Source of the DNA: an uncultured delta proteobacterium
Lineage (GTDB): Bacteria > Desulfobacterota > Binatia > UBA9968
Assembly: GCA_963840855.1 (NCBI GenBank)
Contig: CAWJBB010000040.1
Span: 192,001-256,000 of the forward strand
Length of the DNA: 64,000 nt
Direction of reading: 5' to 3'
Shown: positions 10,036 through 45,840 of the stretch, one piece after another
Numbering within the stretch: position 1 is the first letter of the stretch
Layout: the number at the start of each line of letters is the position of its first letter
The notes under the pieces: generated by a model
Databases searched by the model: none
The model's input: the letters and a program-made list of their open reading frames with translations, nothing else
What the model was told of the DNA's origin: nothing
Program-made: the position numbers and the translations under genes

Positions 10036-10048
10036 CCACCGCGTGGCG

Positions 10049-10180
10049 GTTCAACGTTCCACGTTCAAGGTTCAAGGCTTGCCGTTCAACGTTCAATGTT
10101 CAAAGTTCACGGCTGGAACGATCTTGAACTCTTGAACCTGAACCTTGAACCTGCCGAACATTTAACCTTGAACTTTGAAC
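10049..10180. repeat. GTTCAAN heptamer palindromic repeat
   Basis: Run of GTTCAA(C/G/T/A) units then (C/T)TTGAAC units between convergent ftsY and MFS genes. Confidence 0.85.
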
Positions 10181-11438
10181 CGGCTCTTGCCCTGGATCTG
10201 TTTTGGTTTCTCCCGCCCGCGGTCTCCTTGACCGAAAAATTGAGTAGCCCTGCCGTGGCGAAAGCGCAAAGTCCGAACAAAGCAAACGCCGCACTGTAAG
10301 CGATATGCTCGGCGACGAGAGCGAAAAGAGCGGGGCTCACAAGCCCGCCAATCTCGCCCACCAGACGCCAAATACCAAAGAATCGACCCCGGGCCGCCGC
10401 CGGCGCCATATCCGAACCCACGACTTGCATACTTCCCGATGTCACGCTGTGACCGGCATGGACCCAGAAGAATCCCACGATAAAACTAGCCAGACTCCAG
10501 TGCCATCCCGCGCTCGACGCGAGAAAGATAAGACCGAGGGCGATCGCTATGAATCCCGGCACCATCGTCGTCTTGCGCCCGAAGCGGTCCATCAAGTAGC
10601 CGCAGGAAAGGGTGATCGGGATGCCGATGACGCTGCTCGCCGTAGCGAGTCCGCCCAACACCTGTGGGCCTACTCCATAGGCGAAGGTTGCATAGAGCAG
10701 CAACGTTCCGCCCCACAAGACGGCCCGCGTCATCGAGGCAAAAAACTGCGCGCAAAAGAATCCCGTATAACCGCCGTTGACGATCAACTTCAACAGAGCT
10801 CGAGTACTGAGCTGATCGTCATTGCCCCGATCCTTTGATTCCCGCCGCGCCGACTCTCGCAGCAGAAAAAAACTCGGCACGATGGCCAACAACGCAAGCA
10901 CGCCGTGCACAACAAACGGCGTGCGAATGCTCCAAGCCGCGAGCACTCCGCCGACGGCCGGACCAACCAGCCTGCCGGCGCCTTCGGTGCCCACCATGCC
11001 GCTGATCTGCCGGCCCCGGTGATGACTCTTGCTGATGTCGGCGATAATCGCCAGCCGCGCCTGCCGCCACATTTCCATCGCGCCGCCGCCGACCAAGCGA
11101 TAGACCAACAACTCAGGGAAAGAATGCGCCACAGCGGTAAGACACGAAGAGCCGGCCATCAGCACCGGGCCGGCAAAGAGAATCGGACGGCGGCCCAGAC
11201 GATCCAGGAGAAAACCGGTGGGCACCGCCGCGATCAACCCACCGAGGGCGTGCACGACGATGACCAATGAGGCGACAGCGAAACCGGTGTCGAAGGACTT
11301 TGCGAAAACCGGAATCGCCGGCGTCGCGATACTATAACCGAGAGCCAGCACAAAGGCAGGGAAATAGAGAGTCAGGAACTGATAAGAAGAGAGCACGCCA
11401 CCGCTGTCCGTCTCCTGAGTGTCGGTATCTCTATCCAT
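10107..11438 (-). CDS. MFS transporter
   Basis: Motif A GFLLDRLGRR and GYLMDRFGRK, about 12 TM segments; start moved to ATG 11438. Confidence 0.9.
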   Translation of the reverse strand: MDRDTDTQETDSGGVLSSYQFLTLYFPAFVLALGYSIATPAIPVFAKSFDTGFAVASLVIVVHALGGLIAAVPTGFLLDRLGRRPILFAGPVLMAGSSCLTAVAHSFPELLVYRLVGGGAMEMWRQARLAIIADISKSHHRGRQISGMVGTEGAGRLVGPAVGGVLAAWSIRTPFVVHGVLALLAIVPSFFLLRESARRESKDRGNDDQLSTRALLKLIVNGGYTGFFCAQFFASMTRAVLWGGTLLLYATFAYGVGPQVLGGLATASSVIGIPITLSCGYLMDRFGRKTTMVPGFIAIALGLIFLASSAGWHWSLASFIVGFFWVHAGHSVTSGSMQVVGSDMAPAAARGRFFGIWRLVGEIGGLVSPALFALVAEHIAYSAAFALFGLCAFATAGLLNFSVKETAGGRNQNRSRARAGSKFKVKCSAGSRFRFKSSRSFQP

Positions 11439-11510: not shown

Positions 11511-12332
11511 TTAAGCTTCGTCCCGGACGGCGCGCGAATACCACATCAGCGCCACACCGACGACCAAGCCGATAGCAAATGCCACGACCCACAACCACGT
11601 GCCAGGCGCGGCCCAAACAACCGTATGGACCGAAGCGTCCACTACCACAAGTCCCAAGATAGTGAAGAAGCCTAGGACGGCGTAGGTGATACCGAGTGTG
11701 AAGTATTCGATGGGCGCGGCGGCGCGCGCCAACACGAACGCGCCCACGGCGCCGGTAAGAAAAATAGCGCTGTACATCTGGCCATGAAAAACGTCGATCT
11801 TCCACGGCCAAAAGGCGCTGGCGGACTCTGGCGCGAAAAATTGAGCCAGCCCGTACACGGCCAAGACAACTCCCAACCCGCGTAAACCATAGCGCCATGG
11901 TGCCGGCACCGGGGTTGGGTCAGCCGGCCGTAATCGCCGATAGAGCCAAAGGTGATAGGCGGCATTGATAGGCAGCACGATGTACAGAACGAACCAGACC
12001 CAAGTTGCCAAGCGGTCGTAGCGAAAATTTCCGAGCGCCAGCAGCGTCATGACGAGAACGACGAAGGTAAAGGTAAAAAGCATGGGCAGCACCAACCGAG
12101 CGGGCGCCCATCGGCTGCCCACGAGCATCATCGCGACGGCAATCATAGAGGTCAAATATACCGCGCCGACGAAACGGGCATTGAAGGGCCGTATCTCCCA
12201 GGGCCAATGGGCTCGCGTCAAGTCAGTAAAGAAGAACAGACCCACGCCCGCCCCGATGAGAACGAAGACTTCAACGACCGTCAGGCCGCGCAGAAGCGGC
12301 GTGATGGGCGGGTTTTTATTCTTGATTAACAT
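11511..12332 (-). CDS. Uncharacterised integral membrane protein with internal duplication
   Basis: About 8 hydrophobic segments; halves share WPW motifs (HWPWEIRPFNARFVGAVY, FWPWKIDVFHGQMYSAIF). Confidence 0.75.
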   Translation of the reverse strand: MLIKNKNPPITPLLRGLTVVEVFVLIGAGVGLFFFTDLTRAHWPWEIRPFNARFVGAVYLTSMIAVAMMLVGSRWAPARLVLPMLFTFTFVVLVMTLLALGNFRYDRLATWVWFVLYIVLPINAAYHLWLYRRLRPADPTPVPAPWRYGLRGLGVVLAVYGLAQFFAPESASAFWPWKIDVFHGQMYSAIFLTGAVGAFVLARAAAPIEYFTLGITYAVLGFFTILGLVVVDASVHTVVWAAPGTWLWVVAFAIGLVVGVALMWYSRAVRDEA

Positions 12333-12388
12333 TCCATTTGTCCTCTCATCTCTGAGCTATGCACTATGGGCACTGGAGACGCAACGGG

Positions 12389-12529
12389 CAGAACAGCACC
12401 ACCAATAGCCAGCATGATACTCCCCGCATTAAATCCTGTAACTGTCCCAACCCCCATAAAGGAACCAATGAACCCGCCAATGAAAGCACCCGCGATCCCT
12501 ATCAAGATGGTAATGATAATTCCTCCGGG
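12389..12529 (-). pseudogene. Fragment of a GlsB/YeaQ/YmgE (transglycosylase-associated) small membrane protein
   Basis: Manual translation PGGIIITILIGIAGAFIGGFIGSFMGVGTVTGFNAGSIMLAIGGAVL; no in-frame start before an upstream TGA; usual N-terminal helix missing. Confidence 0.7.
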
Positions 12530-12615
12530 TATTCCCTCATTTTGCAGTTCGAAGTTCCTTAGGAGCCAAACGGAACAATGTGCTGCACGGCTTCAACGGC
12601 GCAACATCGATCTGA

Positions 12616-12659
12616 AGGGCTGGACATTTAACCTCCGGTTGCGCTAAGAGGCTTTTAAA
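12616..12659 (+). promoter_or_regulatory. Conserved ~44-bp motif, copy 1 (upstream of the fusion gene)
   Basis: AGGGCTGGACATTTAACCTCCGGTTGCGCTAAGAGGCTTTTAAA; recurs at 18938 and 21634. Confidence 0.8.
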
Positions 12660-12692
12660 TTCGTTGTCTTTTTCTTACCGGAAGGAAAATAG

Positions 12693-15600
12693 GTGGCGCA
12701 GTACTTGATGGGACTCGACCTCGGCGGCAGAAAGGGCCGCTGCTTGCTTCTTGACGTGGAGTCTGGCGCGGCGGTGACAACGTCGCGGCCGTGGCAACAC
12801 CGGGGGACCGCCGGATTCGGCTACAACCTCGACACTGTCGAGGTGTGGCGGCTGTTCGGTGAAGCCGCACGCGAGGCCATGGCCAAGGTCGGTGCACGAC
12901 CGCAGGATGTCTTGGCGGTCTCTACCACAGGAATGCGCCATGGATCGGTTGTGGTCGATGCCAGAGGAGAAGTGCTGCTTGCAACCCCGACGCGAGACGC
13001 GCGCGGCGCGATGCACGGTCTTCAGCTTGCGGCCGAACGCGGGCGCGAGTTCCACGAACGAACTGGCCACTTTCCGGCGCCTTTGTTTACGGCTTCCCGG
13101 TTATTGTGGATGGCGGACGAAGCGCCCGAGCTTCTCGGCCGGGCACACACAGTGTTAGGACTAAGCGATTGGTTGGCCTATCGGCTATCGGGAAAGACGG
13201 TCGCTGAACCGTCGGTGGCGAGCGAAAGCGGCCTGTTCGAGGCGGGTGCGAGGCAGTGGGCGGATGACCTTATTCGCTCGCTGGGCTTGCCACGATATCT
13301 GTTTCCGGAGGTGGTGTCGTCGGGTGCGACGCTTGGGTCGCTAGGCAAAGATGCGGCCGCGCATCTGGGTTTACAGCCGGGAATCCCGGTAGTCACAGGT
13401 GGCGGCGATACGCAGTGTGCCTTGCTTGGGACAGGCGTGGTTGACTGGGGCCAGATGGCTGTTGTCGCCGGATCGACGATGCCGGTGCAGTGCGTGCTCG
13501 AGCGTGGGTTCATCGACACTGAGGCTCGCCTGTGGACCTCGCACCACGTCGTACCGGGGCGCTGGACGCTCGAGTCCAACGGCGGGCCGAGCGGCGACAT
13601 GATCGATTGGCTGGCTGGCGTAATCTATTCGGGATTGGGCGATCCGGCGGCGGCCTTGTTTGCCGAAGCCTCTCAAAGTGTTGTGGGCGCCGAAGGGATC
13701 GTCTCGACCTTGGGAGCTGAGGTGTTCAACGCCAGCCGTCTGCGGCTGCCCCTCGGTCATCTGACATTGTCGCCAATGATGGTGGCTGACGATCCATCGC
13801 GGCGTCGCCACTTGGCGCGAGCAGTTGTCGAAGGTTTGGCCTACGCGGCGAGGGCTAACATTGAGCTTTTGCAAAAGGCGGCGCCGAAGGGATCCATCGA
13901 AGCGATCCGATTGGCCGGCGGGATGTCAAAGAGCGGATTCTTCGCACAGCTCCTTGCGGATGTGCTCGGCGTGCCGGTTGAAGTAGCCCAGGTACCGGAG
14001 TGCTCGGCGCTTGGAGCGGCAATTTGCGCCGGGGTCGGAGCGGGCCTCTATGGCAACCTGGTCGACGGAGCCAAGCGTTTTAGCGGTGGACTGCGGGGCT
14101 TTGCGCCTGATCTGGCGAGACACGCGGTCTATCAACCGCATTATAGTCGCTGGATGGAACTACGCGCGGCGCGTCAGAAGGCCGACGAGATCGCCGAATC
14201 GGGCGCGCTACAGGCGATCATGGCCAAGGCGGCCGAGAATTCTGCGAACAGCGCATTCAAGACCAGCGCGCTGCGGCCCAACATTCTGGTCACTGCGGCG
14301 ATGGACGAGGAAGGGTTGGTGGCGCTGCGCAAGCTTGGCGAAGTCCGTTATGAGAGTTTTCGCGAAAACTTGCAGCTACTAACTGGCGAGGACCTGATCG
14401 AGGCGCTCGCCGGAGTGCAGGTGTTCATCACCGAGGTGGACGCGGTGGACGCCGAGGTGTTGAGCAAAGCGCCGGATCTGCGGGTGGTCGCTTCCTGCCG
14501 CCGTAACCCGGTCAATCTCGACATCGACGCGTGCACGGCGCATGGGATTTTGGTGCTCACGACACCGGGGCGCAACGTGGACGCGGTCGCTGACCTGACG
14601 ATCTGTTTCATGCTGATGTTGGCGCGCAAGCTGCCGCAAGCAACGCAGTTCCTCCATCAACCCGGCGAGGCAGGCGATGTCGGTCGCATGGGGCGGGCCT
14701 TCGAGGGTTTACAGGGGCACGAGCTTTGGCGTAAGACGATCGGCATCGTTGGTTTGGGGTCGGTTGGCCAACGCGTGGCCAAGCGCCTTCAACCGTTTGG
14801 CGCGCGCGTCATTGCCAACGATCCATTCCTTTCGCCCGTAAGGGCGGCGCTCCTCGACGTCGAGTCGGTCTCGTTGGAGCAGCTCCTTACCGAGAGCGAT
14901 TTCGTCACCCTGCACGCGGCCGTCACGGACGTATCGCGGGCGCTGCTCGGGCCCGCGGAAATTGCGAAGATGAAGCGGGACGCGTGCCTGATCAACACCG
15001 CGCGCGCGGCTCTGGTCGATGAAGCGGCGCTCGTCTCGGCGCTCAAGGACGAGCGGCTCGCGGGCGCGGCGGTCGACGTATTTCCCATCGAGCCGCCCGG
15101 TTCGGATCATCCGCTGCTCCAGCTTTCGAATGTGATCGCCACGCCGCACATCGGCGGCAACACCTTCGAAGTTTCCTCGCACCAAGGCGCCATCGTGGCG
15201 GCGGACCTGGCTGAACTTCTGCGCGGCGGGCGACCGCATAATGTCGCTAACCGCGAAACCCTCGAGCATTTTAGTTGGACCGCGCCGCGGCCCGTGCCTT
15301 CACTCGAGGCTCTCGAGCGGCTGCGCCGGAACTCACGGCCGTCGGTGACCGACCTTCCCGTCGACACGGAAAAGGCCTTGTCGGCTCCAAAAGGGGCGCC
15401 AGTTTTCCCCATCGAAGCGCCCCGTGCGGCGAAGAAAGAGAGCCTGCTTTCGGGACTCAAGAACGCTTTTCTCGGTCGTCGATCGGAGAGGGTTGAAACC
15501 CCCGCTATGTTGGACCACCCCACTGAGCGCCAGAACGGCAGTCGTTCGGATGGATCGAAGGCAGTGCGCGCGCATATGGAGCGGCTTTTGGGCAACTTCG

Positions 15601-16694
15601 GCCAGCGGGTGAGCCGCGACGAGAAGATCCTGTCGTTCGCCGAAGGACGGCAGGTGACGGTGCGCTATGAGCTCAATGATGTGGATCTCTCCTTCTATAC
15701 GAGCTTCGATCAGGGCGCGGTGCGTTGTGGCGTGGGCGATCCGCCGGAAAAGCCGCAAGTTACGCTGAAGATGAAGGCCGACATTCTCGACAAGCTGTTT
15801 ACCGGACGGGAGAACGGTCCGAAGGCGGCGATGAGCGGGAAGCTGTCCTTCATCGGCGACACCATCAAGGCGATGTCGTTGCAGCGCATTCAGAAAGATC
15901 TCAATCGCCTCTACACCGAGGCCCGAGCCGAAGCCGGAGATCTCGACGCGGTTTTCGAACGGGCGGCGGACGAGGCACCCGGGCAGAGCCAGCCGCGGCC
16001 TGCGGGGCCGCTTACTACCGCGGCTGTAAGCGGCGAGGTCGCCAGCGCGGCTCGAATCCTCGCCGGTGATATTCGCGACGAGGTCGTTCGCGCCGTCGAG
16101 GAAATGTACGCGCACGGCCTCATCACTTCGACGGGCGGCAACGTGAGTGTACGGATCCCGGGCAAAGACGAAGTTTGGATCACACCCAATTCGTTCTTCA
16201 AGGGCGCGCTTCGCCCAGACATGTTGGTGCGGGTCGATCTCGAGGGCAACCCGATCGGCGATTCTCCCTATGCACCGTCGAGCGAGCGCATGCTGCACTG
16301 CGCGGTCTACCGTAACAAAGCGATTGTGGGGGCGGTGATCCACTCCCATGCGCCAAAGACAACGCTCTTGGGTCTCGCAGGCCTCCCGTTCCTACCGATT
16401 TCGACGGAGGCCGCTTTCATCGGCGAGATTCCACGCATCCCGTTCATCATGCCTGGAACCACTGAGCTGGCCGATGCGGTGGCTGCGGTTGCCAAGGATG
16501 CCCCCGCCGTGATCATGCAAAACCATGGCCTCATCGTCGGTGGACCGAACTTGCGTCACACCATCGACATGACGCTCATCATCGAGCACACGGCGGACAA
16601 GCTCATCGCTTGCCATATGCTCGGAAAGATTCCGCCGGTTCTGCCCGACGAGATCGTCAGTGCACTGAGAAGCCTCGGAGAGATGGTCTCGTAG
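12693..16694 (+). CDS. Four-domain fusion: FGGY carbohydrate kinase, D-2-hydroxyacid dehydrogenase, SCP2 domain, class II aldolase/adducin
   Basis: FGGY: GLDLG, GGGDTQC, ECSALGAAICAGVGAG. Dehydrogenase: IVGLGSVG, INTARA, DVFPIEP, TPHIGG. SCP2: VTLKMKADILDKLFTG…AAMSGKLSFIGD. Aldolase: GGNVSVR, PSSERMLH, HSH, NHG. One uninterrupted ORF. Confidence 0.85.
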   Translation: MAQYLMGLDLGGRKGRCLLLDVESGAAVTTSRPWQHRGTAGFGYNLDTVEVWRLFGEAAREAMAKVGARPQDVLAVSTTGMRHGSVVVDARGEVLLATPTRDARGAMHGLQLAAERGREFHERTGHFPAPLFTASRLLWMADEAPELLGRAHTVLGLSDWLAYRLSGKTVAEPSVASESGLFEAGARQWADDLIRSLGLPRYLFPEVVSSGATLGSLGKDAAAHLGLQPGIPVVTGGGDTQCALLGTGVVDWGQMAVVAGSTMPVQCVLERGFIDTEARLWTSHHVVPGRWTLESNGGPSGDMIDWLAGVIYSGLGDPAAALFAEASQSVVGAEGIVSTLGAEVFNASRLRLPLGHLTLSPMMVADDPSRRRHLARAVVEGLAYAARANIELLQKAAPKGSIEAIRLAGGMSKSGFFAQLLADVLGVPVEVAQVPECSALGAAICAGVGAGLYGNLVDGAKRFSGGLRGFAPDLARHAVYQPHYSRWMELRAARQKADEIAESGALQAIMAKAAENSANSAFKTSALRPNILVTAAMDEEGLVALRKLGEVRYESFRENLQLLTGEDLIEALAGVQVFITEVDAVDAEVLSKAPDLRVVASCRRNPVNLDIDACTAHGILVLTTPGRNVDAVADLTICFMLMLARKLPQATQFLHQPGEAGDVGRMGRAFEGLQGHELWRKTIGIVGLGSVGQRVAKRLQPFGARVIANDPFLSPVRAALLDVESVSLEQLLTESDFVTLHAAVTDVSRALLGPAEIAKMKRDACLINTARAALVDEAALVSALKDERLAGAAVDVFPIEPPGSDHPLLQLSNVIATPHIGGNTFEVSSHQGAIVAADLAELLRGGRPHNVANRETLEHFSWTAPRPVPSLEALERLRRNSRPSVTDLPVDTEKALSAPKGAPVFPIEAPRAAKKESLLSGLKNAFLGRRSERVETPAMLDHPTERQNGSRSDGSKAVRAHMERLLGNFGQRVSRDEKILSFAEGRQVTVRYELNDVDLSFYTSFDQGAVRCGVGDPPEKPQVTLKMKADILDKLFTGRENGPKAAMSGKLSFIGDTIKAMSLQRIQKDLNRLYTEARAEAGDLDAVFERAADEAPGQSQPRPAGPLTTAAVSGEVASAARILAGDIRDEVVRAVEEMYAHGLITSTGGNVSVRIPGKDEVWITPNSFFKGALRPDMLVRVDLEGNPIGDSPYAPSSERMLHCAVYRNKAIVGAVIHSHAPKTTLLGLAGLPFLPISTEAAFIGEIPRIPFIMPGTTELADAVAAVAKDAPAVIMQNHGLIVGGPNLRHTIDMTLIIEHTADKLIACHMLGKIPPVLPDEIVSALRSLGEMVS

Positions 16695-16753
16695 GCGAGC
16701 ACCGCTCCAACTTTCGGTACTCTTTGGGAAGAAGCGACTGGAGTCCGAGGGTG

Positions 16754-17896
16754 TTAGCCCTTCGGAATGGGCGATACTTGGGGGTCAGGGTGCTCCAGCC
16801 AGCGGATCACGGTAATCGCCAGGGCCACCGCGGTAATCTCTAGATGCGCGCCAAGCAGAAAGTGGTCGCTGCCCAGCTCGGCTAGCGTCACGCCGCCTGG
16901 AAAAATCATGTCGGACAACAGTAAAAGCCCGTCATTGGGTCCATGCTTTCGCAGCGGAAAAAAGCCTCTGCGCGCCAAAAAAGAAATGCTGCCGCTGACA
17001 GGAATGCCAAAGTAGTTAACCACAAGCACATGTTCAGGGATGCGAAAGGAATCGAATCGTTGCCGACTGCGCGCAGTCGTGATGCTATCCTTGCCGGCAA
17101 CGTCCACTTTACCAACTATATATTCTAACTCCGGCGCAAGCCCTTCGTCCGCGACCGGGGAGCCTTGAAGTGCGCCCACCGTATTGATCCATGCGGCGAC
17201 ATGACCGGTCTCAGCGAGTCCCAGCCGCGTCAACGCGAGGGCGACTTCCGGACTGGACTTGCTGGCGCTGACGATGATCAGCCGGCGGCCGCTCTGCGCC
17301 TGAGCCCGAATGGCGGCAGTCACGATATCCGCGTTCACCTCAACGGCGCCGTCGTCTTGCGTTTCGACAAAATGGCAGGTGAATCCCACCTGTTGCAGCG
17401 CTGCCCGCGGAGCGGCGAAATCGGCACCCGTGAAGGTCAACCGCTTGTAGAGATAGGTGGGCACAAACATGATTTCATAGTCGGCGGCCGCCGAGGGTAA
17501 TCTAACGCGACCTTCAGGAAGGTTTTTGCGCGTATAATCGTAGGCTTGATCGAAGGCGCTCCGAAAACGACGATTGACCGGCGTGCGATCGATCTGGTCG
17601 GCCAAATATAAAGCTGCGAAGTCAACCGAGAACTCATCGCTTAGATGTTTCAGGTCGTTGCGGTCGGGCAGATTACCGTTGGCACTCTGGTAAACGCGAT
17701 CGATCCGCTCATCGAGCACAGCATCGCTGCGTTTTCCCGCGAGGTAGTTTCCGAGGTAATAACGCGCTACTTCCAAATCGACCCGGGTTTCGATGGTTTG
17801 CCCACCCACGCTGCCGCGCACCGGCAGGCCGGCGCATGCCGTCAGCGACAGAAGGGCAGATGATAAAAGAATAAACTTGAGCCGATGGAGGATCAT
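16754..17896 (-). CDS. Putative lipoprotein, alpha/beta-hydrolase-like
   Basis: Lipobox LSLTAC; IIVSASKSS at the likely nucleophile elbow, ALQGSPVAD, NDGLL, SDH. Confidence 0.6.
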   Translation of the reverse strand: MILHRLKFILLSSALLSLTACAGLPVRGSVGGQTIETRVDLEVARYYLGNYLAGKRSDAVLDERIDRVYQSANGNLPDRNDLKHLSDEFSVDFAALYLADQIDRTPVNRRFRSAFDQAYDYTRKNLPEGRVRLPSAAADYEIMFVPTYLYKRLTFTGADFAAPRAALQQVGFTCHFVETQDDGAVEVNADIVTAAIRAQAQSGRRLIIVSASKSSPEVALALTRLGLAETGHVAAWINTVGALQGSPVADEGLAPELEYIVGKVDVAGKDSITTARSRQRFDSFRIPEHVLVVNYFGIPVSGSISFLARRGFFPLRKHGPNDGLLLLSDMIFPGGVTLAELGSDHFLLGAHLEITAVALAITVIRWLEHPDPQVSPIPKG

Positions 17897-18026
17897 GTTA
17901 ATAAGCCCTGCGTAAGCTGCACCTTTGCGTTTGACGAGAAGAATTTCGGCGCCGTCCAAAGCCCAACCCAATCCAGAGAGTTAGGCCGTTGCCCAACTAC
18001 CGCCGGGCGGACCTCAGTAGAAGGAG

Positions 18027-18872
18027 TTAGTTGGAGAATAGCTCCGGCGAGCTCTCCGGAGTTGCTTCGTCTTCATCTTTCCGAGCCCTATCCCTGCCGC
18101 TAATTCGCCCCACAACACGGTTGTAGCAGTCCGCGGCAAGTTTTTTCCTACCTGCCGAGTTGTCTTCATATCGGAAACATTCGATCTTGGGCTGAATCGT
18201 CATCCTGACCTCGACGCTCCGCAGTCCTAAAAGCTTCCAAAAATGAGGCAAAAAGTCCATATCACCGTAACAATAGATTAAGTCCCGATTGGCCACCGAG
18301 ACGGGTTGTTCTTCGATACTCGTGTAAGCAAGCGTGACCGGAACGATAATCGACCGGCTTCTTATAGGCGCAGCCAGCGGAGCGGTTTGGAAGGGCAGCA
18401 TCCGTTCGCCATTCGTCGCAGCTCCCTCTGGAAACAGCAAGATATTGGCCTCCTGCTTTAGTTTCCGCCTAATCTCCTTAGTCGTTAACGAAACGAGGCT
18501 TTTTCGTTGACGATTGATGAAGATGGTTCCGCAAAGTGTCGTCCATTGACCGATCACCGGCCAGCTTTTCACTTCTCTTTTGGAGACAAAAATCACGGGG
18601 AAAAGAGCTCCCAGAACAATGCCATCAATGTAGCCGACGTGGTTACTGATGATCACATAGCCGCCGCGTTCCAGTTGCCCTTCGTCGCCCTCCACCGTCA
18701 CTTTGATGTTTAGAATCGTTCTCAAGAGAAAGTTAAAACTTCGTATCGGTCGGCTGATAATCTTCCAGCGGTTAGGAAGTTTTAGCACACTTATCCACAG
18801 GTGGGCCAGGGTCACGACCCCGAAGAAAAGTAACCACAAGGATAAGATAGCGGAGAGCTTAACCCATCTCAT
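18027..18872 (-). CDS. Lysophospholipid acyltransferase (PlsC-like)
   Basis: NHVGYID (HX4D), FINR, FPEG motifs. Confidence 0.88.
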   Translation of the reverse strand: MRWVKLSAILSLWLLFFGVVTLAHLWISVLKLPNRWKIISRPIRSFNFLLRTILNIKVTVEGDEGQLERGGYVIISNHVGYIDGIVLGALFPVIFVSKREVKSWPVIGQWTTLCGTIFINRQRKSLVSLTTKEIRRKLKQEANILLFPEGAATNGERMLPFQTAPLAAPIRSRSIIVPVTLAYTSIEEQPVSVANRDLIYCYGDMDFLPHFWKLLGLRSVEVRMTIQPKIECFRYEDNSAGRKKLAADCYNRVVGRISGRDRARKDEDEATPESSPELFSN

Positions 18873-18937
18873 GACGCGCCTGTTATGAGGCAAACATTAT
18901 TAGATAACGACGGGTTAAGTCAACTTGCTTGCATCAC

Positions 18938-18981
18938 AGGGCTGGACATTTACGCCTCAGTTGCGGTAAGAGGCTTTTAAA
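18938..18981 (+). promoter_or_regulatory. Conserved ~44-bp motif, copy 2 (upstream of the ferritin-like gene)
   Basis: AGGGCTGGACATTTACGCCTCAGTTGCGGTAAGAGGCTTTTAAA. Confidence 0.8.
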
Positions 18982-19105
18982 CTCTTCGAATAAGGCAGCA
19001 TAACCGGACGGAGATCAATCGCGATCATTTCCGGCTGGCGTCAGAAACTGAATCGCATCTGTTTTTATTTTGCTTATGTACGAGAATAGCCGAAGGGAAC
19101 TATGG

Positions 19106-19924
19106 ATGCCGGGATCTTTGGTGGTTGGTTCGGCGGAGCACAAAGAACTGTTTTGTCGTTTCTTTATCGATACGCATATCACATTTGATCCTGCTGCTAT
19201 CGACTGGCCTGATCTCGACGAGGGCAGCCTCAAACTGCTTCACAGCTTGCCCGTATGGGCCGAAGCTATCGAGACCGAGCGTATGGGGACATGCACGGTT
19301 CAGAGCTGGGCGGAACTGCAGACCGACCCTTTAATACGCCAGGCAGTTGCTCTACAAGGGCAAGAAGAAGCGCGGCATGCCGCTATAATCCAAGGTTTGA
19401 CCACACGTTACGGCATAACGTTGCCTACTTTACCTCCGCCAGTACCTCCGGTCGACGCTGAATGGGACTTCCTGCGTTTTGGGTACAGCGAATGTTTCGA
19501 TGCCTTTTTCACTTTTGCGCTGTTCGCTATTGCTCGGGATTCAGGCTTGATCCCGCGGCGCTTGGTCGAGACGTTCGAGCCGGTCATACAGGAGGAGGCG
19601 CGTCACATTCTATTTTTCGTCAACTGGGAAGCCTATCACCAGGCTCGAAGTCCGTTCTGGCAACGGCCGAGGAGCCTGGGGCGTGGAGCACTGGAAAGAG
19701 TTCTACAGGCATACAAGCGCCTGAGGATTGCGCTTGGGGCACGCACGAACAAAGATTTTACCATGAAAGCGCATCAGCAGATCACTACGGAAATTACGGC
19801 GCGCCGTTTTCTCGAACTGTGCCTGGCGGAAAATGCTCTACGGTTAGATCGCTACGACGCACGTTTGATACGTCCCCGCCTGGTACCAGCCATCGCTAAA
19901 GCATTGTGCCGTTTCCTGCCGTAA
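19106..19924 (+). CDS. Ferritin-like (di-iron) domain protein
   Basis: Two EExRH motifs (QEEARHA, QEEARHI) with preceding Glu residues; start could be 19070-19106. Confidence 0.8.
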   Translation: MPGSLVVGSAEHKELFCRFFIDTHITFDPAAIDWPDLDEGSLKLLHSLPVWAEAIETERMGTCTVQSWAELQTDPLIRQAVALQGQEEARHAAIIQGLTTRYGITLPTLPPPVPPVDAEWDFLRFGYSECFDAFFTFALFAIARDSGLIPRRLVETFEPVIQEEARHILFFVNWEAYHQARSPFWQRPRSLGRGALERVLQAYKRLRIALGARTNKDFTMKAHQQITTEITARRFLELCLAENALRLDRYDARLIRPRLVPAIAKALCRFLP

Positions 19925-19958
19925 TATTCTCGGTATCGCTTCGCTGGGGGCCGCGATC

Positions 19959-21386
19959 CTAGGGGCTAGCGGGTCGAGGCTCCGGAGTTCCCGTCGCCTC
20001 AAGCACCGCCTGACGCCACTCCCGCTTGAGGGGGAGAACCGGCGGCATCGGCGACACGTCCGGCGCCTCGGTCGGCGCGGCGATCGCCTCCTTGCGGTCG
20101 GTCGCCGAACCCTTCTTCATGAACAGGTTATAGATGGTCCACTGGATCCGGCTTCGCTTTCCCCGAACCGGGAAGCGCCGAACGATGGACGACGGCGCGT
20201 AAAACGTCTCGTAGGCGAATTCTTGACCCAGCCGGAGTTCGTCTCCCGACATCTGCGCCGGTCGATAGACGACGTTTGCCTGGTCGTACTTGGTCCAATC
20301 AAAGGAGACAATCCGATTGGCCTTCTTCATTTCGTACCATGTCAAGGTGCCCGGATATGGAGTGAGGACCGAATAAGCGCAGGCGTCGTAGTTCGCGTCA
20401 ATGCAGAACTTTGCCGTTTCCTCAAATACCGTAGCATCGTCGCCATCGAACCCGAACATGAAAAGTCCGAAAACCATGATTCCATAGGAGTGTACCTTCT
20501 CAACGAGTGAAACAAATGTCTCGGGCCGGTTCACATGCTTGTGCACGCTCGTTAAGGTGGAGCGCGTGATCGACTCGAAACCGATGCTCATCAAGGTGCA
20601 GCCGCTTTCGGCGGCAAGTTCCAGCATTCGATCATCCTGCGCGAGCTTTGAGGTGACCCCAGCTTGCCAGTGAACCCCTCGACCCTTGAGCGCACGCATG
20701 ACTTCCTTCGGACGCTCGGGCGTGCCAAAGAAGTCGGAATCGTTGATCGAGATCATGCGCGAATCGCAATTATCCACTTCGCGCATCACTTCATCGATCG
20801 GACGGTAGCGGAACTTGAGCCCGTTCATCAGCGGCTCGCAGCAGAACGTGCAGCCCTGGTGGCACCCGCGAGACGTTTGCACGAACGTGCGATTGACGTA
20901 GCGGTGCTTTTTGATCAGGTCATACCGCGGCATCGGCAAACCTACCATCGGGTGCAGCTTCTCCGACTTGTAAGTGCCGCGCATCTCGCCGCGCTCGAGA
21001 TCGTCCAAGAGCTTATCGATCACAAGCTCCACTTCCCCAATCACCACCGCGTCGCAATGCTTGAGCGCTTCCTGGGCCATAAAGCTCGGGTGCACACCGC
21101 CCATAACCACAGGTACCCCGCGCGCCCGGAAAGTGTCGGCGATCTCGTAGCCGCGGTTAACGTACGCCGTCATCGCCGAGATGCCGATGAGGTCGGCCTT
21201 CAAGTCGAAATCGATGGATTCGATGTTCTCGTCGGTAAGCACCACCTCATAGCGGTCGCGCGGAATGGCACCTGCCACGGCTATTAAGCCCGCGAGGGGA
21301 GAATAAAGCGCCCGATTCAGGTAGAGTGGGCGTGTGGTCAGCGAATGAGTCTTTGGATTGATGAGATGAATTACCCGGTGACGCAT
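19959..21386 (-). CDS. B12-binding radical SAM protein
   Basis: Cobalamin-binding N-domain (GISAM, GGVHPS), SRGCHQGCTFC (CX3CX2C), GFES, TPYPGT; RBS GAGGAG before ATG 21386. Confidence 0.9.
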   Translation of the reverse strand: MRHRVIHLINPKTHSLTTRPLYLNRALYSPLAGLIAVAGAIPRDRYEVVLTDENIESIDFDLKADLIGISAMTAYVNRGYEIADTFRARGVPVVMGGVHPSFMAQEALKHCDAVVIGEVELVIDKLLDDLERGEMRGTYKSEKLHPMVGLPMPRYDLIKKHRYVNRTFVQTSRGCHQGCTFCCEPLMNGLKFRYRPIDEVMREVDNCDSRMISINDSDFFGTPERPKEVMRALKGRGVHWQAGVTSKLAQDDRMLELAAESGCTLMSIGFESITRSTLTSVHKHVNRPETFVSLVEKVHSYGIMVFGLFMFGFDGDDATVFEETAKFCIDANYDACAYSVLTPYPGTLTWYEMKKANRIVSFDWTKYDQANVVYRPAQMSGDELRLGQEFAYETFYAPSSIVRRFPVRGKRSRIQWTIYNLFMKKGSATDRKEAIAAPTEAPDVSPMPPVLPLKREWRQAVLEATGTPEPRPASP

Positions 21387-21633
21387 TTCAGTCGCTCCTC
21401 TCCGCGCTCGCGTCAGCAAATGCCGCCGCGGCGCCCTTGGATACACAAGAATGATAGAAAGTTGTTTTTTTAGAGCTCAACGTGGATCGCTGAAAACGGG
21501 CTGCATCAGCCGCGTGTAATCCAGCTAGCCCGATAGCGAATCCGACAAAGGTGAACCGTCCCTCAATGTCCATTTCGAGGCGTACAGTATTCGATACCGA
21601 TGCATGATGTCAACTTAGCCGTCGCTTCTGGAA

Positions 21634-21675
21634 AGGGCTGGACAACTACGCCCCGATTGCGGTAAGAGGCTTTAA
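21634..21675 (+). promoter_or_regulatory. Conserved ~44-bp motif, copy 3 (upstream of ispA-sqs-shc-hpnG)
   Basis: AGGGCTGGACAACTACGCCCCGATTGCGGTAAGAGGCTTTAA. Confidence 0.8.
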
Positions 21676-21815
21676 GTTAGCTGGTTGACGGAAGTCTTTT
21701 TTTAATGACTTCCGGCTGGTCAATGAGGCTGATGCTGTCGATTCGCTGGCATTTGGGACAGCTAAACATTTCGACACGGGAAGACTTCGAATAAAAGAAC
21801 TGGTATCAAAGCAGC

Positions 21816-22700
21816 ATGGCTCGCAACGCTTTCGACGTCAAACGATATTTGCTCGAGAATAAGTTGTTCATTGACCGTGCTTTGCCGCATTACCTCGAAA
21901 CAGACCACAACCCGTCTGTCCTTCATCAAGCCGTCTGTTATAGCGTTTTAGATGGCGGCAAAAGATTCCGTCCGATATTGACTCTTGCGGTTGGGGAATT
22001 GTTCGGCGCCAAACGGAGAGTCTTGTTGCCGTTTGCCTGCGCCATTGAGTTGATTCATTGCTATTCACTGATCCATGATGACCTACCGGCATTGGATAAT
22101 GACGATCTGCGGCGAGGAAAACCATCGTGCCACAAACGGTTTGGGGAAGCGTTAGCCCTTTTGGCCGGCGATGCATTGCTCACTGAGGCTTTCTTCATCA
22201 TGTCGGACCCGCGGGCGGCGCGGCTCTTAGGTGCTCCGCTGATTTCAAAGCTGATTCGGGAGATCTCCGACGCCGCCAGCATTAGAGGAATGATTGGCGG
22301 ACAAAGTAGGGAGCTCGAATTGGTCAAGCACAAGGTCACGCCGGCTGTTCTCGAGGGTCTTGATCGTTTGAAGACCGGTGCCTTGATCAAGACAGCGGCC
22401 CGTGTCGGAGCGATGATCGGCGGCGCAACCCGTAAAGATCTCGACCGGGTGACGCGATACGCACAATCTTTGGGCTTAGCGTTCCAGATCACAGATGACA
22501 TTTTGGATGCCCACGAAGTTTCGAGCGACAACTCGAATCATAAAGGGATAGCAAATTACGTATCCGTAGCTGGGCCGGCAACGGCTAGTGAACGTGTTAA
22601 AGCCCTTTTAACGGCGTGCTTGAGAGAAATGGAGCCTTACGGCAGAGCAGCGGAACCCTTGCGAGAAATTGCCCGCTACGTGGCTCAAAGAACAGAGTAG
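21816..22700 (+). CDS. ispA: Short-chain polyprenyl (farnesyl) diphosphate synthase
   Basis: GGKRFRP, YSLIHDDLPALDNDDLRRG (FARM), KTGAL, FQITDDILD (SARM). Confidence 0.88.
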   Translation: MARNAFDVKRYLLENKLFIDRALPHYLETDHNPSVLHQAVCYSVLDGGKRFRPILTLAVGELFGAKRRVLLPFACAIELIHCYSLIHDDLPALDNDDLRRGKPSCHKRFGEALALLAGDALLTEAFFIMSDPRAARLLGAPLISKLIREISDAASIRGMIGGQSRELELVKHKVTPAVLEGLDRLKTGALIKTAARVGAMIGGATRKDLDRVTRYAQSLGLAFQITDDILDAHEVSSDNSNHKGIANYVSVAGPATASERVKALLTACLREMEPYGRAAEPLREIARYVAQRTE

Positions 22701-22875
22701 CCTAGTGGAGCCCGGTAAATCCCGGTTAAGGGAATTGGCAGGCAAAATGAGGATAAAAGAGCTGGACATGTGTTCCGGATCGACGTAATGAAGAGTGTGG
22801 CCGAACGGATAAACGGCACTCAAGAGATCCAACATAAAGTTGCCAGACGTAGCCCCATGAAAAGGAGGATGAAGC

Positions 22876-24018
22876 ATGCTGCCTTTTAGAAACGAAAGCG
22901 CCATGTCTAAACTCACCTCGCCTCCTAGCTCAGATCTGGCACCGCGGAAATTATGGCTCAGCGTTGATGATTTTCAATCGGAGATGTTAGAGGCGGTCTC
23001 CCGCACATTTGCCCTAACCATTCCGCAGCTTCCGGCAGCGCTTTGTCGTGTCGTCTCCAACGCCTATCTCCTTTGTCGCATTGTCGACACTATCGAGGAC
23101 GAGCCGGCTCTAACTGGCGCGCGAAAAAACTATTTTTGCGAGCAGTTTTTGAGAACCTTAAACGTTCCGAGAAACGCCGAAACGTTTTCCCGCCAACTAT
23201 GCGCGTCGCTCTCGAGCCAAACACCGCCCGCTGAACACGAGCTGATCCGCAATGTGTCTCGTGTGGTTCGAATCACCCGCAGCTTCTCCGAGCCACAGCG
23301 TGAAGCGCTGCAGCGGTGTGTCAGCGCCATGGCTAAGGGTATGGGACAATTCCAGCTGCGCGGCGAGAAGCAGGGACTGCAAAGCTTGGAGGACCTTGAT
23401 CAATACTGCTACTATGTCGCAGGCGTTGTGGGGCAAATGCTGACTAATCTGTTTTGTCTGCACTCGCCGGAAATCGCGCAAAATCGCAAGGCTCTGATGG
23501 CTTTGGCGGTTTCCTTCGGCCAGGGGCTGCAGATGACGAACATCCTTAAAGATGTGTGGGAAGATTATCAGCGTGGCGCCTGTTGGTTGCCCCGGAAGAT
23601 CTTTGCTGAAGAAGGCTTCGATCTCAACGACTTAACCACAGGGCGAAATCGACAAGGGTTCGACCGCGGAGTTCGGCGCCTTATTGGCATCGCGCATGGA
23701 CACCTGAAAAACGCCCTATCTTATTCCTTACTTATCCCCAAGGAGGAGACTGGGATTCGCAACTTCTGTCTTTGGGCAATCGGGCTGGCCCTGTTAACGC
23801 TCCGCAAGATCAACAAGCATCTTTACTACACGGACGGAAGTCAGGTTAAGATATCGCGGTCGAGCGTTAAGGGGACTATCCTGGCTACACGGCTAACGGT
23901 ACAAAACGATCGTCTGCTAAAGCTTCTCTTCTCTATCGCTGCGCGCGGATTGCCTTCAGCATTCGCCAACGGGTCTCCGGTGGGAACAAGCGAAAGTAAA
24001 GCAGATATGGCACCGTGA
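22876..24018 (+). CDS. Squalene synthase, one-step FPP farnesyltransferase type
   Basis: VSRTFAL, RIVDTIEDE, YCYYVAGVVG, LQMTNILKDVWED; directly upstream of shc. Confidence 0.85.
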   Translation: MLPFRNESAMSKLTSPPSSDLAPRKLWLSVDDFQSEMLEAVSRTFALTIPQLPAALCRVVSNAYLLCRIVDTIEDEPALTGARKNYFCEQFLRTLNVPRNAETFSRQLCASLSSQTPPAEHELIRNVSRVVRITRSFSEPQREALQRCVSAMAKGMGQFQLRGEKQGLQSLEDLDQYCYYVAGVVGQMLTNLFCLHSPEIAQNRKALMALAVSFGQGLQMTNILKDVWEDYQRGACWLPRKIFAEEGFDLNDLTTGRNRQGFDRGVRRLIGIAHGHLKNALSYSLLIPKEETGIRNFCLWAIGLALLTLRKINKHLYYTDGSQVKISRSSVKGTILATRLTVQNDRLLKLLFSIAARGLPSAFANGSPVGTSESKADMAP

Positions 24019-24043
24019 AAAAACCGGACGATTTTTCCCTTGT

Positions 24044-26002
24044 ATGCGGGACGGCGCCACCGAAACCGATCACCAGCACAACCGAGAAAGTAAGATAAGT
24101 CCTACAGACGAGCTGCCGTTGTCTCAACTGGAGCGCGCCATTCAACGTGCCACGAAAGCGCTGCTCGGCCTGCAACACCCAGACGGGTATTGGTGTTTCG
24201 AGCTAGAGGCCGATTGTACCATTCCAGCCGAATATGTCTTGATGATGCACTATCAGGGCGAGGTCGACGAGCCACTGGAGAGAAAACTTGCCACCTACCT
24301 ACGCGCACGCCAAGGGGAGGACGGCGGTTGGCCTCTTTATTACGGCGGTCCCGCTGAGATTAGTTGCTCGGTCAAAGCCTACTACGCGTTGAAGCTCGCC
24401 GGTGATCCCCCCGAGGCACCCCATATGGCCAAAGCTAAGCAGACCATCCTGCGCCTGGGCGGGGCCTCCCGGGCCAATGTGTTTACTCGAATCACGCTTG
24501 CAATTTTTGGCCAGCTACCTTGGCGTGCCGTACCGTTTTTGCCGGTGGAATGCCTGTTACTGCCCCATTGGTTTCCTTTTCACATCTCCAAGGTCTCTTA
24601 TTGGTCACGAACCGTCATGGTGCCGCTCTTCGTCCTCTACACATCTAAGGCGCATGCTCGAAATCCCAGGCAGGTCTCGATCAAGGAACTCTTCATCACG
24701 GACCCCTGGCAAGAAACGAACTATTTTCCAGTTCATTCAGCCCTGAATCGCGCCCTCCTCATGCTGGATCGGCTGGGACTAAAATTCTATCCGTGGAGTC
24801 CGCAAGGTCTGCGCCGCCGCGCCATAAAAAAGGCCGAAGCTTGGATACTCGAGCGGCTCAACGGCGAAGGTGGTTTGGGCGCCATCTTTCCGGCCATGGT
24901 CAATGCTTATGAAGCGCTGGATTTGCTCGGCTATCCCGCTAACCATCCGCTGCGCGTAATCGAACGATCGGCAATCCAGGATCTCCTGGTGATCAACGAG
25001 CACAGCGCATATTGTCAGCCTTGTGTATCACCTGTGTGGGATACCGCATGGGCCTGTATCGCACTCCAGCAGATCGGTGACGAGCAAAGCCAAACGGCGA
25101 TCAAGAGAGCCTTTCATTGGCTGAATCGAAGACAACTACTGGAAGAGCCCCAGGACTGGAGCTTCAATAGGCCCAAAGTCCGGGGCGGTGGTTGGGCCTT
25201 TCAGTTCAAAAATTCTCACTATCCCGATCTGGACGACACGGCAGCGGTCGCTTATGCGATGCACAAGAGCGGCGACAAAACTTTTGACAAAACGGTGCAA
25301 CGAGCAGCCGAATGGATTTGTGGAATGCAGTCGAGAAACGGGGGCTTCGCCTCATTTGATGCCGACAACGATCACACCTATTTAAACGAAATCCCTTTCG
25401 CCGATCACGGCGCTCTGCTCGACCCGCCCACCGAGGACGTGAGCGGACGTTGTGTGATGTTGCTTACGCAAATGGTGACTTCACCGCAATGCAAGGCCGT
25501 TGAAAAAAAGTGCCTGGACTACCTCTTCCGTTCTCAAGAGCCGGACGGTCCATGGTACGGCAGGTGGGGGACAAATTACATCTATGGCACTTGGTCTGTC
25601 CTTATGGGGTTGGAAGAGGCAGGCATAGGGAAAGAACACGACGCGGTGCGACGTGGCGCTGCTTGGCTCAAGAATGTCCAGCGTGCCGATGGTGGCTGGG
25701 GCGAAGGATGCGACACTTATTTTGAGCCGTCCAAACGGGGCCAGGGAGAGCGCAGCACCTCTTTTCATACCGCATGGGCTTTGCTGGGCTTGATGAGCAG
25801 CGGCGAGGTCGATTCGCATTCAGTTCGTCGCGGCATCGACTTCCTCCTGCGCACACAGCAGCCGAATGGTTTTTGGAGCGATCCCGAGTTCAATGCCCCC
25901 GGTTTTCCGCGCGTCTTTTATTTAAAGTATCACGGTTATGACAAATACTTTCCCTTGCTGGCGTTGGCACGCTATCGGAACTTGATGGCGGCGGAACATT
26001 AA
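24044..26002 (+). CDS. shc: Squalene-hopene cyclase
   Basis: Catalytic DLDDTA, QW repeats, WYGRWGTNYIYGTW, GFPRVFYLKYHGY. Confidence 0.96.
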   Translation: MRDGATETDHQHNRESKISPTDELPLSQLERAIQRATKALLGLQHPDGYWCFELEADCTIPAEYVLMMHYQGEVDEPLERKLATYLRARQGEDGGWPLYYGGPAEISCSVKAYYALKLAGDPPEAPHMAKAKQTILRLGGASRANVFTRITLAIFGQLPWRAVPFLPVECLLLPHWFPFHISKVSYWSRTVMVPLFVLYTSKAHARNPRQVSIKELFITDPWQETNYFPVHSALNRALLMLDRLGLKFYPWSPQGLRRRAIKKAEAWILERLNGEGGLGAIFPAMVNAYEALDLLGYPANHPLRVIERSAIQDLLVINEHSAYCQPCVSPVWDTAWACIALQQIGDEQSQTAIKRAFHWLNRRQLLEEPQDWSFNRPKVRGGGWAFQFKNSHYPDLDDTAAVAYAMHKSGDKTFDKTVQRAAEWICGMQSRNGGFASFDADNDHTYLNEIPFADHGALLDPPTEDVSGRCVMLLTQMVTSPQCKAVEKKCLDYLFRSQEPDGPWYGRWGTNYIYGTWSVLMGLEEAGIGKEHDAVRRGAAWLKNVQRADGGWGEGCDTYFEPSKRGQGERSTSFHTAWALLGLMSSGEVDSHSVRRGIDFLLRTQQPNGFWSDPEFNAPGFPRVFYLKYHGYDKYFPLLALARYRNLMAAEH

Positions 26003-26703
26003 TGCTGGGAATCGTTGTTTCTCTGCCTCGAGAATTAAAAGGTCTAACTCGTCAAACCATTTCAGTGGGTGCGTGGAAGGCGATCACGGATAACACATTG
26101 GTTGCCCTCTCGGGGATGGGAGCAGAGCGCGCATACAGAGCGGGGGCGGTTTTGGTTTCGCAGGGAGCAAAAGCTCTACTGAGCTGGGGTTGTGCGGCGG
26201 GGCTGGACGACCGCATCAGCCCGGGATGCCTCATCATTCCCGAGCGCATTATCGGCGCAAGCGGTGAAATTCATAAGGTCAACACGGAATGGCATCAACG
26301 TCTGTATAAAACCTTAGAGCGCAAGCACTCAGTTCACACGGAGGCCCTGGTCGAAAGCGATGCCATTATGAAAACTGCAGTGGAAAAACGGGCGCTGGCC
26401 AAACGGACGCAAGCGGCAGCGACGGACATGGAAAGCGCAGCACAAGCGCGGCTCGCCCAAGAGCACGGACTTCCCTTTCTGGCGATCCGCGCCATTGTCG
26501 ACACGGTCTCAACCGATATTCCAGAAAACGTCCTAAAGGCGCTGGATCCGCAAGGCAATATCCGCGTCTGGAAACTTCTCGCCAGCAGCTATCTCGCGCC
26601 AGCGGATTGGATGAAGATCGTACAACTCGGCATCCAGTTTAGCGCGGCTCGAAGAACCCTCAAGAAGACGAGAAAGCTTGTACTGGATGCATCACAGTTC
26701 TGA
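26002..26703 (+). CDS. hpnG: Hopanoid-associated nucleosidase/phosphorylase HpnG
   Basis: SGMG, LLSWGCAAGL, DMESAA; start overlaps the shc stop. Confidence 0.82.
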   Translation: MLGIVVSLPRELKGLTRQTISVGAWKAITDNTLVALSGMGAERAYRAGAVLVSQGAKALLSWGCAAGLDDRISPGCLIIPERIIGASGEIHKVNTEWHQRLYKTLERKHSVHTEALVESDAIMKTAVEKRALAKRTQAAATDMESAAQARLAQEHGLPFLAIRAIVDTVSTDIPENVLKALDPQGNIRVWKLLASSYLAPADWMKIVQLGIQFSAARRTLKKTRKLVLDASQF

Positions 26704-34797: not shown

Positions 34798-34798
34798 G

Positions 34799-45664: not shown

Positions 45665-45698
45665 TTGTCCTCCGTCTGATGAGCACACTGCGTGTGCG

Positions 45699-45827: not shown

Positions 45828-45840
45828 AGCAGACCCGTCG

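Follow-up and report, generated by a model that had tools for sequence, protein, structure and literature searches.

Three copies of a 44-bp repeat in a Binatia lipid/hopanoid gene cluster are probable IS91-type element ends, retained most likely as promoters

The DNA analysed here, called the window below, is a stretch of 64,000 nucleotides from an uncultured delta proteobacterium of the Binatia (GenBank assembly GCA_963840855.1, contig CAWJBB010000040.1, positions 192,001 to 256,000 of the forward strand). It harbours three copies of a 44-bp motif in intergenic regions of a lipid/hopanoid gene cluster, namely before a four-domain fusion gene, before a ferritin-like open reading frame (ORF), and before a hopanoid operon. 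The motif lies next to remnants of IS91-family transposase genes, is retained at orthologous positions in related genomes, is more conserved in its two blocks than in the spacer between them, and is oriented towards the downstream gene. On balance we favour, with considerable room for doubt, the reading that the motif is the end of an IS91-type element, and that relics of it were retained, most likely as promoters, before the three gene sets. The motif copies and the genes around them are the following.

12616 to 12659, plus strand: motif copy 1, composed of AGGGCTGGACA, a 12-nt spacer, TTGCGC, and TAAGAGGCTTT(TAAA); nhmmer E 7e-16.
12693 to 16694, plus strand: downstream gene 1, a fusion of 1333 amino acids (FGGY kinase, D-2-hydroxyacid dehydrogenase, SCP2, class II aldolase).
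18027 to 18893, minus strand: divergent gene left of copy 2, OlsA-like acyltransferase; likely true start ATG 18872.
18938 to 18981, plus strand: motif copy 2, before the ferritin-like ('di-iron') ORF; nhmmer E 4.5e-17.
19103 to 19924 (or from 19070), plus strand: downstream gene 2, an ORF of 273-284 amino acids, ferritin-like/FA_desaturase_2-like by language-model features only.
19959 to 21446, minus strand: divergent gene left of copy 3, B12-binding radical SAM protein.
21634 to 21677, plus strand: motif copy 3, before the FPP synthase-sqs-shc-hpnG operon; nhmmer E 2.8e-16.
21816 to 26703, plus strand: downstream operon 3, FPP synthase, squalene synthase, squalene-hopene cyclase, and HpnG.

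The pattern AGGGCTGGACA-N12-TTGCGS-TAAGAGGCTTT, searched with a tolerance of up to three mismatches, has three matches in the window, at 12616, 18938, and 21634, each on the plus strand and each with 0 mismatches. The mean over 100 dinucleotide shuffles of the window was 0.00 matches. A preliminary description of this DNA, made from the letters alone, had reported the repeat at these three places, with 27 invariant positions and a fixed 12-nt spacing, and the recount confirmed all of this. Independent repeat finding in the window recovers the same three-member family (D4). The three copies are co-oriented, each between a minus-strand gene on its left and a plus-strand gene of the lipid/hopanoid cluster. 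The distance from the end of the motif to the next plus-strand start is 37 nt for copy 1 (GTG 12693), 92-125 nt for copy 2 (TTG 19070 or ATG 19103), and 142 nt for copy 3 (ATG 21816).

A genome collection of 596 Gb was scanned with the strict 18-base core of the motif, CTGGACA-N12-TTGCG-N-TAAGAG. The scan returned 16 loci, with about 17 matches expected by chance according to our own estimate (18 specified bases, 596 Gb, both strands). In eight of the 16 loci the similarity extends beyond the searched bases, with GGG or AGG 5' of the core and GCT.TTAA 3' of it. By their titles, five of these eight belong to Candidatus Binatia metagenome-assembled genomes (MAGs), one to an uncultured delta proteobacterium, one to a Deltaproteobacteria bacterium, and one, a short contig, to Anaerolineales. 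The remaining eight loci lack flank similarity and, on that comparison, look like chance matches. An nhmmer profile of 11 copies added two copies, giving 13 in the window and the eight loci (E <= 7e-10), and detected nothing further below E = 0.39 in either. A weaker site had been proposed at about 22761, before sqs. It exists, but its profile match covers the first block only (nhmmer E = 0.39, 7 bits), and it is not kept in the orthologous intergenic region of locus L013, and it appears to be a chance match.

Orthologous placement was established by BLASTP comparison of the ORFs of each locus with those of the window. In L002 the motif stands upstream of the orthologs of the fusion gene (82% identity) and of the ferritin-like gene (83%), and in L013 upstream of the orthologs of the ferritin-like gene (86%) and of FPP synthase (89%). 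The orthologs of copy 2, upstream of the same gene, have E 4.5e-12 in L013 and 7e-10 in L002. In other loci the motif precedes an SNF2 helicase with SWIM protein (L005), a DHDPS-family gene (L008), a 2Fe-2S plus molybdopterin oxidoreductase (L010), or a membrane protein (L015). Near-identical intergenic sequence is found before non-homologous genes, with seven downstream contexts among the 13 copies. Synteny breaks between the related genomes fall at motif copies: L002 possesses another gene before the ferritin-like gene, L013 lacks the B12-binding radical SAM gene, and L015 has another gene after the motif. The gene upstream of the motif is co-directional, not divergent, at both L002 copies (L002a and L002b). 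Two MAG contigs end 0-155 nt from the motif (L004 and L016), as expected of an assembly break at a repeat. L004 and L005 belong to one mosaic contig of 6.3 kb, on which two motif copies, at a distance of 5.3 kb from each other, occur together with two distinct transposase remnants. The segment 3722-3828 of L004 is 77% identical to window 21450-21551, the leader of the B12-binding radical SAM gene.

Conservation within the motif was compared over four orthologous pairs, window 1/L002a, window 2/L013b, window 2/L002b, and window 3/L013a. The blocks were defined as motif positions 1-11 and 30-40, and the four-fold degenerate sites of the flanking orthologous genes served as neutral reference. The blocks are identical at 82 of 88 positions (93%) and the 12-nt spacer at 31 of 48, compared with 572 of 843 four-fold sites (68%). 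The difference from the four-fold sites is significant for the blocks (Fisher p 6e-8) and not for the spacer (p 0.64). Between window copy 2 and L002b the flanks are unalignable on both sides, and block 1 is identical at 11/11 and block 2 at 10/11 positions. The TTGCG block is kept in 12 of the 13 copies. The downstream gene is co-directional in all seven assessable independent contexts (chance 0.5^7, about 0.008); two further copies, at the contig ends in L004 and L016, stand outside this count. Because the blocks exceed the four-fold sites in identity while the spacer matches the neutral rate, the window relics are apparently not neutral junk. Selection would hold AGGGCTGGACA and TAAGAGGCTTT in relics retained at orthologous positions, and the 12 nt between them would drift at the neutral rate.

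The genes adjoining the motif in related loci point to its origin. In L005 a minus-strand ORF of 126 amino acids extends up to the motif and into it, with its stop codon within TTTTAAAT in the 3' part. The fragment itself gave no match in Pfam. It is 76% identical to the C-terminus of proteins of ~430 amino acids, which carry Zn_Tnp_IS91 (PF14319, E 4e-18) and Y2_Tnp (PF04986, E 3e-23) and are therefore IS91-family rolling-circle transposases. Both domains were found by direct scanning in two of these relatives, P0001 and P0004, and were taken from precomputed annotation for P0007 and P0010. Full-length P0001 and the L005 ORF share their final four residues, SQLI, and therefore the motif begins at the stop codon in the intact gene. 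Tail remnants were sought by tblastn with the four full-length relatives. The L005 match covers 98 residues (E 1e-40), and one remnant was detected in the window.

21692 to 21805, minus strand: transposase remnant of 37 codons, C-terminal residues ~362-398, reading towards copy 3.

The 37 residues of this remnant align with P0001, P0004, and P0010 at E 1e-3 to 2e-4. Its nucleotide alignment with the L005 tail scores 83, compared with a maximum of 29 in 500 shuffles. Remnants detected by tblastn lie beside the motif at window copy 3, L013a, L010, L004 (two pieces), and L005. Nucleotide alignment adds remnants in L015 and L002b (0-1 of 500 shuffles as good), and the one in L008 is marginal. No catalytic part of the transposase gene survives in the window, and the adjacency of motif and IS91-family transposase gene is seen only in remnants (window 21692-21805 and L005). 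A blastn search of window 21447-21815 against a plasmid collection gave no match. Judged from these alignments, the three window copies are rather likely to be transposase-less relics of one mobile element. The 44-bp motif would then be the DNA right after the stop codon of a Binatia IS91-family transposase gene, and part of the transposase-distal (oriIS-side) end of that element.

Further features lie to the left of copies 2 and 3.

18896 to 18923, minus strand: sigma-70-like promoter TTGACT-16-AATAAT, pointing at the acyltransferase gene; 10/12 consensus.
21447 to 21612, minus strand: a module of ~170-190 nt, between the 21586 to 21613 promoter and the start of the B12-binding radical SAM gene.
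21586 to 21613, minus strand: sigma-70-like promoter TTGACA-16-AATACT, pointing at the B12-binding radical SAM gene; 10/12 consensus.

The preliminary description had noted GTCAACTT before copies 2 and 3, where it is indeed present. It corresponds to TTGAC on the minus strand, i.e. to the -35 of the sigma-70-like promoters for the divergent minus-strand genes. The promoter at 21586-21613 is kept in L013, L015, L004, and L016, and the one at 18896-18923 in L013. Overall, a TTGACA-type minus-strand promoter lies 19-26 nt left of the motif in 8 of the 13 copies. Neither this identity of GTCAACTT nor the transposase remnant formed part of the preliminary description.

The module has colinear repeats in L010 (4806-4975), L016 (two copies, 463-655 and 1459-1627), L004, and L013, with a size of ~170-215 nt. 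The modules of the window (21447-21612) and of L013 are diverged forms of the L004/L010/L016 module. Read in the sense of the transposase, its far end is AACTTTCTATCATT in the window (21451-21464) and AAATTCCTATCATT in L010. In both, the orientation is the same and the module end is ~190-240 nt away from the motif; ~10 of 14 terminal bases match the published ISCR27 and ISCR1 sequences. According to the available parts of the respective reports, the oriIS of ISCR27 is GCGGTTGAACTTCCTATACC, 236 bp after the transposase stop (PMC8894482), and that of ISCR1 reads GTGGTTTATACTTCCTATACCC (PMC13023784). The ISCR-type terminal consensus with which AACTTTCTATCATT and AAATTCCTATCATT were compared is ...AACTTCCTATACC(C), ~230 bp after the stop. 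At the level of sequence, the far end of the module resembles an ISCR oriIS. Three IS91-family target tetranucleotides, GTTC, CTTG, and GTCC, were compared with the bases beyond the module. In the window the module end is followed by CTTG (21447-21450); in the other four module copies the bases at this place differ. Taken together, 21447-21815 is apparently colinear with an ISCR/IS91-like 3' non-coding end, with an oriIS-like end, an outward promoter, the motif, and a truncated transposase gene.

Two copies of the module contain hairpin-shaped insertions, at differing places. The module has no match in Rfam. Its RNAalifold consensus reaches -17 kcal/mol, with compensatory change in 9 of 34 pairs from only 6 sequences in two subfamilies. 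The module could be a structured leader, a small RNA, or a structure that the rolling-circle end adopts as single-stranded DNA.

Outside the motif, the bases next to its outer edge differ between copies, and a recurrent breakpoint lies at this edge, AGGGCT. Window copy 1 (between 12615 and 12616), L002a, L002b, L005, and L008 lose all similarity there. One module copy of L016 (452-665) loses similarity at the same motif/module junction from the opposite side. The breakpoint would fit a second rolling-circle boundary; no explanation tested accounts for it.

Two invariant blocks, a drifting spacer of fixed length, and an orientation towards the gene form the typical mark of a protein that contacts the DNA at two places on the same face; most simply, this protein would be RNA polymerase holoenzyme. 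TGGACA agrees with the -35 consensus at 5 of 6 positions, the spacer is 18 bp, and TAAGAG agrees with the -10 consensus at 3 of 6 positions, with G at position 6. A consensus scan of the three window intergenic regions reported no sigma-70-like promoter on the plus strand, so that the plus-strand genes are left with no other obvious promoter. From the sequence, a promoter TGGACA-18-TAAGAG is the most likely function of the motif, with the chances roughly even. In the host, such a promoter would have TGGACA as -35 and TAAGAG as -10, and its predicted start would fall about at the former transposase stop codon. Transcription would cross the remnant of the transposase gene before reaching the plus-strand gene. 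The adjoining GTCAACTT would act as the -35 of a separate canonical sigma-70-type promoter firing the opposite way, and the relics together would be bidirectional promoter cassettes derived from an insertion sequence (IS). An alternative sigma factor or an activator may be needed, and TTGCG and the extended blocks may be contacts. No genes for sigma or anti-sigma factors were found among the 52 window ORFs scanned. We infer the promoter activity, the binding of a sigma factor or regulator, and the role of the motif in the intact element from the arrangement described above.

Sigma-54 promoters have the consensus TGGCAC-N5-TTGCW. CTGGACA and TTGCG are superficially like its -24 and -12 elements; the site was rejected, the GG-GC spacing being 17 nt and not 10.

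Several points weigh against the reading of the copies as element ends retained as promoters. TAAGAG has no T at position 6, and the site, not reported by the consensus scan, does not pass as a sigma-70 promoter; this lowers the case for a housekeeping promoter, not that for a promoter of some other sigma factor. Canonical promoters exist in the window, that of a tRNA (TTGACA-17-TACAAA) and those of the minus strand, and the housekeeping sigma factor may therefore not use the motif site. In the intact element the putative motif promoter would point inward, antisense to the transposase gene, which would be unusual compared with the outward promoters of ISCR1 in the available description (PMC6218425). 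Beside window copy 2 the tail remnant is a weak one, with 11 of 500 shuffles reaching its score, and window copy 1 has no demonstrable one (177 of 500 shuffles as good). The motif is absent after the stop of the transposase on a Trichlorobacter lovleyi plasmid, the closest annotated relative of P0001 (48% identical). The ends of the element and the place of the motif in it are pieced together from fragments, no intact copy having been recovered. As to the conservation, the search pattern by which two of the four orthologous pairs were found itself requires identity at 18 block positions, and the pairs sharing window copy 2 are not independent. With the two profile-found copies alone, the blocks are identical at 41 of 44 positions versus 155 of 232 four-fold sites (p 2e-4). 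The Trichlorobacter lovleyi relative also excludes the motif as a family-wide feature of IS91 elements.

The motif might instead be only an end recognised by the transposase, an oriIS or binding site, with inert relics whose conservation comes from constraint on the element at a time before they were stranded, or from mobilisation in trans. The motif abuts the transposase stop codon, and its outer edge is the recurrent breakpoint in five motif copies and one L016 module copy, both in favour of this explanation. IS91-family oriIS hold imperfect subterminal palindromes (PMC13181058, in the part available), and the motif contains one imperfect 5-bp palindrome, GCCYC/GAGGC. This is the only palindrome at the motif, and it shows no excess over shuffles and no covariation. 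As DNA it folds no better than shuffles on either strand (z -0.6 to +0.9), without compensatory change. An inert relic should decay evenly, whereas the blocks are 93% identical and the spacer and four-fold sites 65-68% between orthologs that lack a transposase; the orientation towards the downstream gene in 7/7 contexts would also be unexpected. We regard an inert end as unlikely.

A second explanation, which we consider quite improbable, makes the motif a host promoter or operator of a genuine regulon, beside which an IS91-family element prefers to insert, so that the transposase remnants are secondary. It draws on the insertion of the oriIS end of IS91-family elements next to a specific short target (PMC13181058, as far as available), on the motif being kept where no transposase remains, and on the position of all three window copies within one 9-kb lipid cluster. 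The transposase stop lies inside the conserved 3' part of the motif, and P0001 has the same end residues, which leaves no room for an oriIS between gene and motif. The downstream genes in relatives are functionally unrelated and contigs break at the motif, which likewise speaks against a host regulon. The preliminary description had suggested a shared promoter with an operator, defining a regulon. The two blocks, the neutral spacer, and the orientation fit the shared promoter, and the unrelated downstream genes weaken a regulon specific to lipids.

Still less probable is a regulator site that acts on the divergent minus-strand promoters from ~20-70 bp upstream of their -35. The TTGACA-type promoters 19-26 nt to the left in 8/13 copies would suit it, as would TTGCG, which is not needed for a -35/-10 promoter and is kept in 12/13 copies all the same. 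Nevertheless, the 5/13 copies without that promoter keep both blocks, the distance to the promoter varies, and the upstream gene is co-directional in L002a and L002b.

An RNA switch had also been proposed, on the grounds that GCCYC can pair with GAGGC. Rfam at its gathering score returned only one tRNA in the window, and no match to the motif was found at E <= 1 in 12300-23000 or at E <= 0.1 in the eight related loci. RNAalifold gives the consensus of 12 motif copies -2.0 kcal/mol, to which covariation contributes 0. In the proposed stem 70% of cells are paired and no pair has changed on both sides, and its central pair forms in 3 of the 12 copies. The motif RNA folds no better than shuffles (z +0.4 to +0.8), and the stem arm within the spacer evolves at the neutral rate. 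Copies 2 and 3 do allow a GCCYC...GAGGC stem with a U-run behind it; given these results, however, it is barely credible that the motif serves the plus-strand genes as a switch or attenuator in their 5' leader.

The suggestion of a duplicated mobile promoter came closest to the reading of an IS91-type end kept as promoter. In relatives, a probable IS91-family end stands before unrelated genes, and the promoter activity is the putative part. Putative mobile promoters have been described as highly similar intergenic sequences before non-homologous genes, within and between genomes (PMC3575422, in the part available). In contrast to these, the vehicle can be named here, an IS91-family end, and the two blocks appear to have come under purifying selection after fixation. 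The relics can be regarded as IS-derived promoter cassettes or as IS relics, with decent evidence of exaptation.

ISCR1 and ISCR27, as far as their available descriptions go, have, behind a rolling-circle transposase gene, a few hundred bp of non-coding DNA with promoters for neighbouring host genes and, at its end, oriIS. In ISCR1 the oriIS-side region of 232 bp contains two outward (POUT) promoters that drive neighbouring genes, one with the -10 TAAGAT (PMC6218425, same limit). Similarly, an outward TTGACA promoter is contained in the module of copy 3, whose terminal AACTTTCTATCATT is located ~190 nt from the motif. Apart from the inward direction of the putative motif promoter, the differences are that the 44-bp motif has no counterpart in the available parts of those descriptions, that the host is an uncultured Binatia bacterium with lipid/hopanoid cargo and not resistance genes, and that the element is known from fragments. 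With IS91, IS801, and IS1294 the element shares Zn_Tnp_IS91 and Y2_Tnp in the relatives of the remnant, functionally distinct ends, and no inverted repeats around the motif. The CTTG after the window module end is the target of IS91 (PMC13181058, in the part available). The element differs from IS91, IS801, and IS1294 in that the tetranucleotide is inconsistent over the other module copies and the subterminal palindrome is marginal.

A more far-reaching possibility is that the three relics mark the units by which an ISCR-like element assembled and wired the Binatia hopanoid/lipid supercluster, the 44 bp being both rolling-circle boundary and inward promoter; the boundary would account for the sharp recurrent breakpoint at AGGGCT. 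Each unit would then consist of an element end followed by captured genes, namely the fusion gene, the ferritin-like gene, and the hopanoid operon. We consider this doubtful; the link between the element and the assembly of the lipid cluster is interesting but unproven.

The genes around the copies present some further features. The four-domain fusion of 1333 amino acids, with a phosphoglycerate-type dehydrogenase and an aldolase/epimerase, is unusual beside hopanoid genes, and it is conserved in L002 and L013. The ORF of 273 amino acids at 19103-19924 has no sequence match in Pfam, NCBIfam, or PDB, and language-model features alone make it resemble ferritin-like, FA_desaturase_2, and AurF di-iron proteins. 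The conserved ORF of 405 amino acids at 16754-17971 has no match in Pfam or NCBIfam. The B12-binding radical SAM protein (19959-21446) scores far below the cut-offs of HpnJ, HpnR, and ladderane-type lipid radical SAM proteins (best 90 bits versus 578). Its gene adjoins the motif in L015 and is missing from the same place in L013. To the left of copy 1, a short minus-strand ORF at 12326-12560, with an unclear start codon, is rich in G-x-x-x-G membrane repeats; by eye we take it to resemble stress membrane proteins of the GlsB/YeaQ/YmgE type.

The window also contains arrays of the heptamer GTTCAAN, followed tens of bases on by inverse NTTGAAC arrays, which form long intergenic hairpins, mostly at gene 3' ends. 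They are located at 10046-10181, 34693-34812, 43536-43565, 45696-45828, 48473-48571, and 59675-59787, with variants at 38065-38120, 62319-62381, and 63673-63742. GTTCAANGTTCAA, with at most one mismatch, has 32 matches in the window compared with 0.28 expected. The heptamer GTTCAAN contains GTTC and the complement of CTTG, which are IS91-family target tetranucleotides.

A limited literature search on Binatia with hopanoid returned no prior description, and absence is not established by it. In place of a lipid regulon operator or a riboswitch, the present reading puts forward an explanation that can be tested. It also calls for caution with conserved bipartite repeats in intergenic regions of MAGs, which may be transposon ends. 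If confirmed, the 44-bp element would be a candidate promoter for expressing Binatia genes. It would also provide a clear example from nature, away from clinical resistance islands, of an IS91/ISCR-type element supplying regulatory DNA that came under selection. In this uncultured phylum without genetics, the promoters of the hopanoid operon and of two neighbouring lipid genes appear to be derived from an IS91/ISCR-type end.

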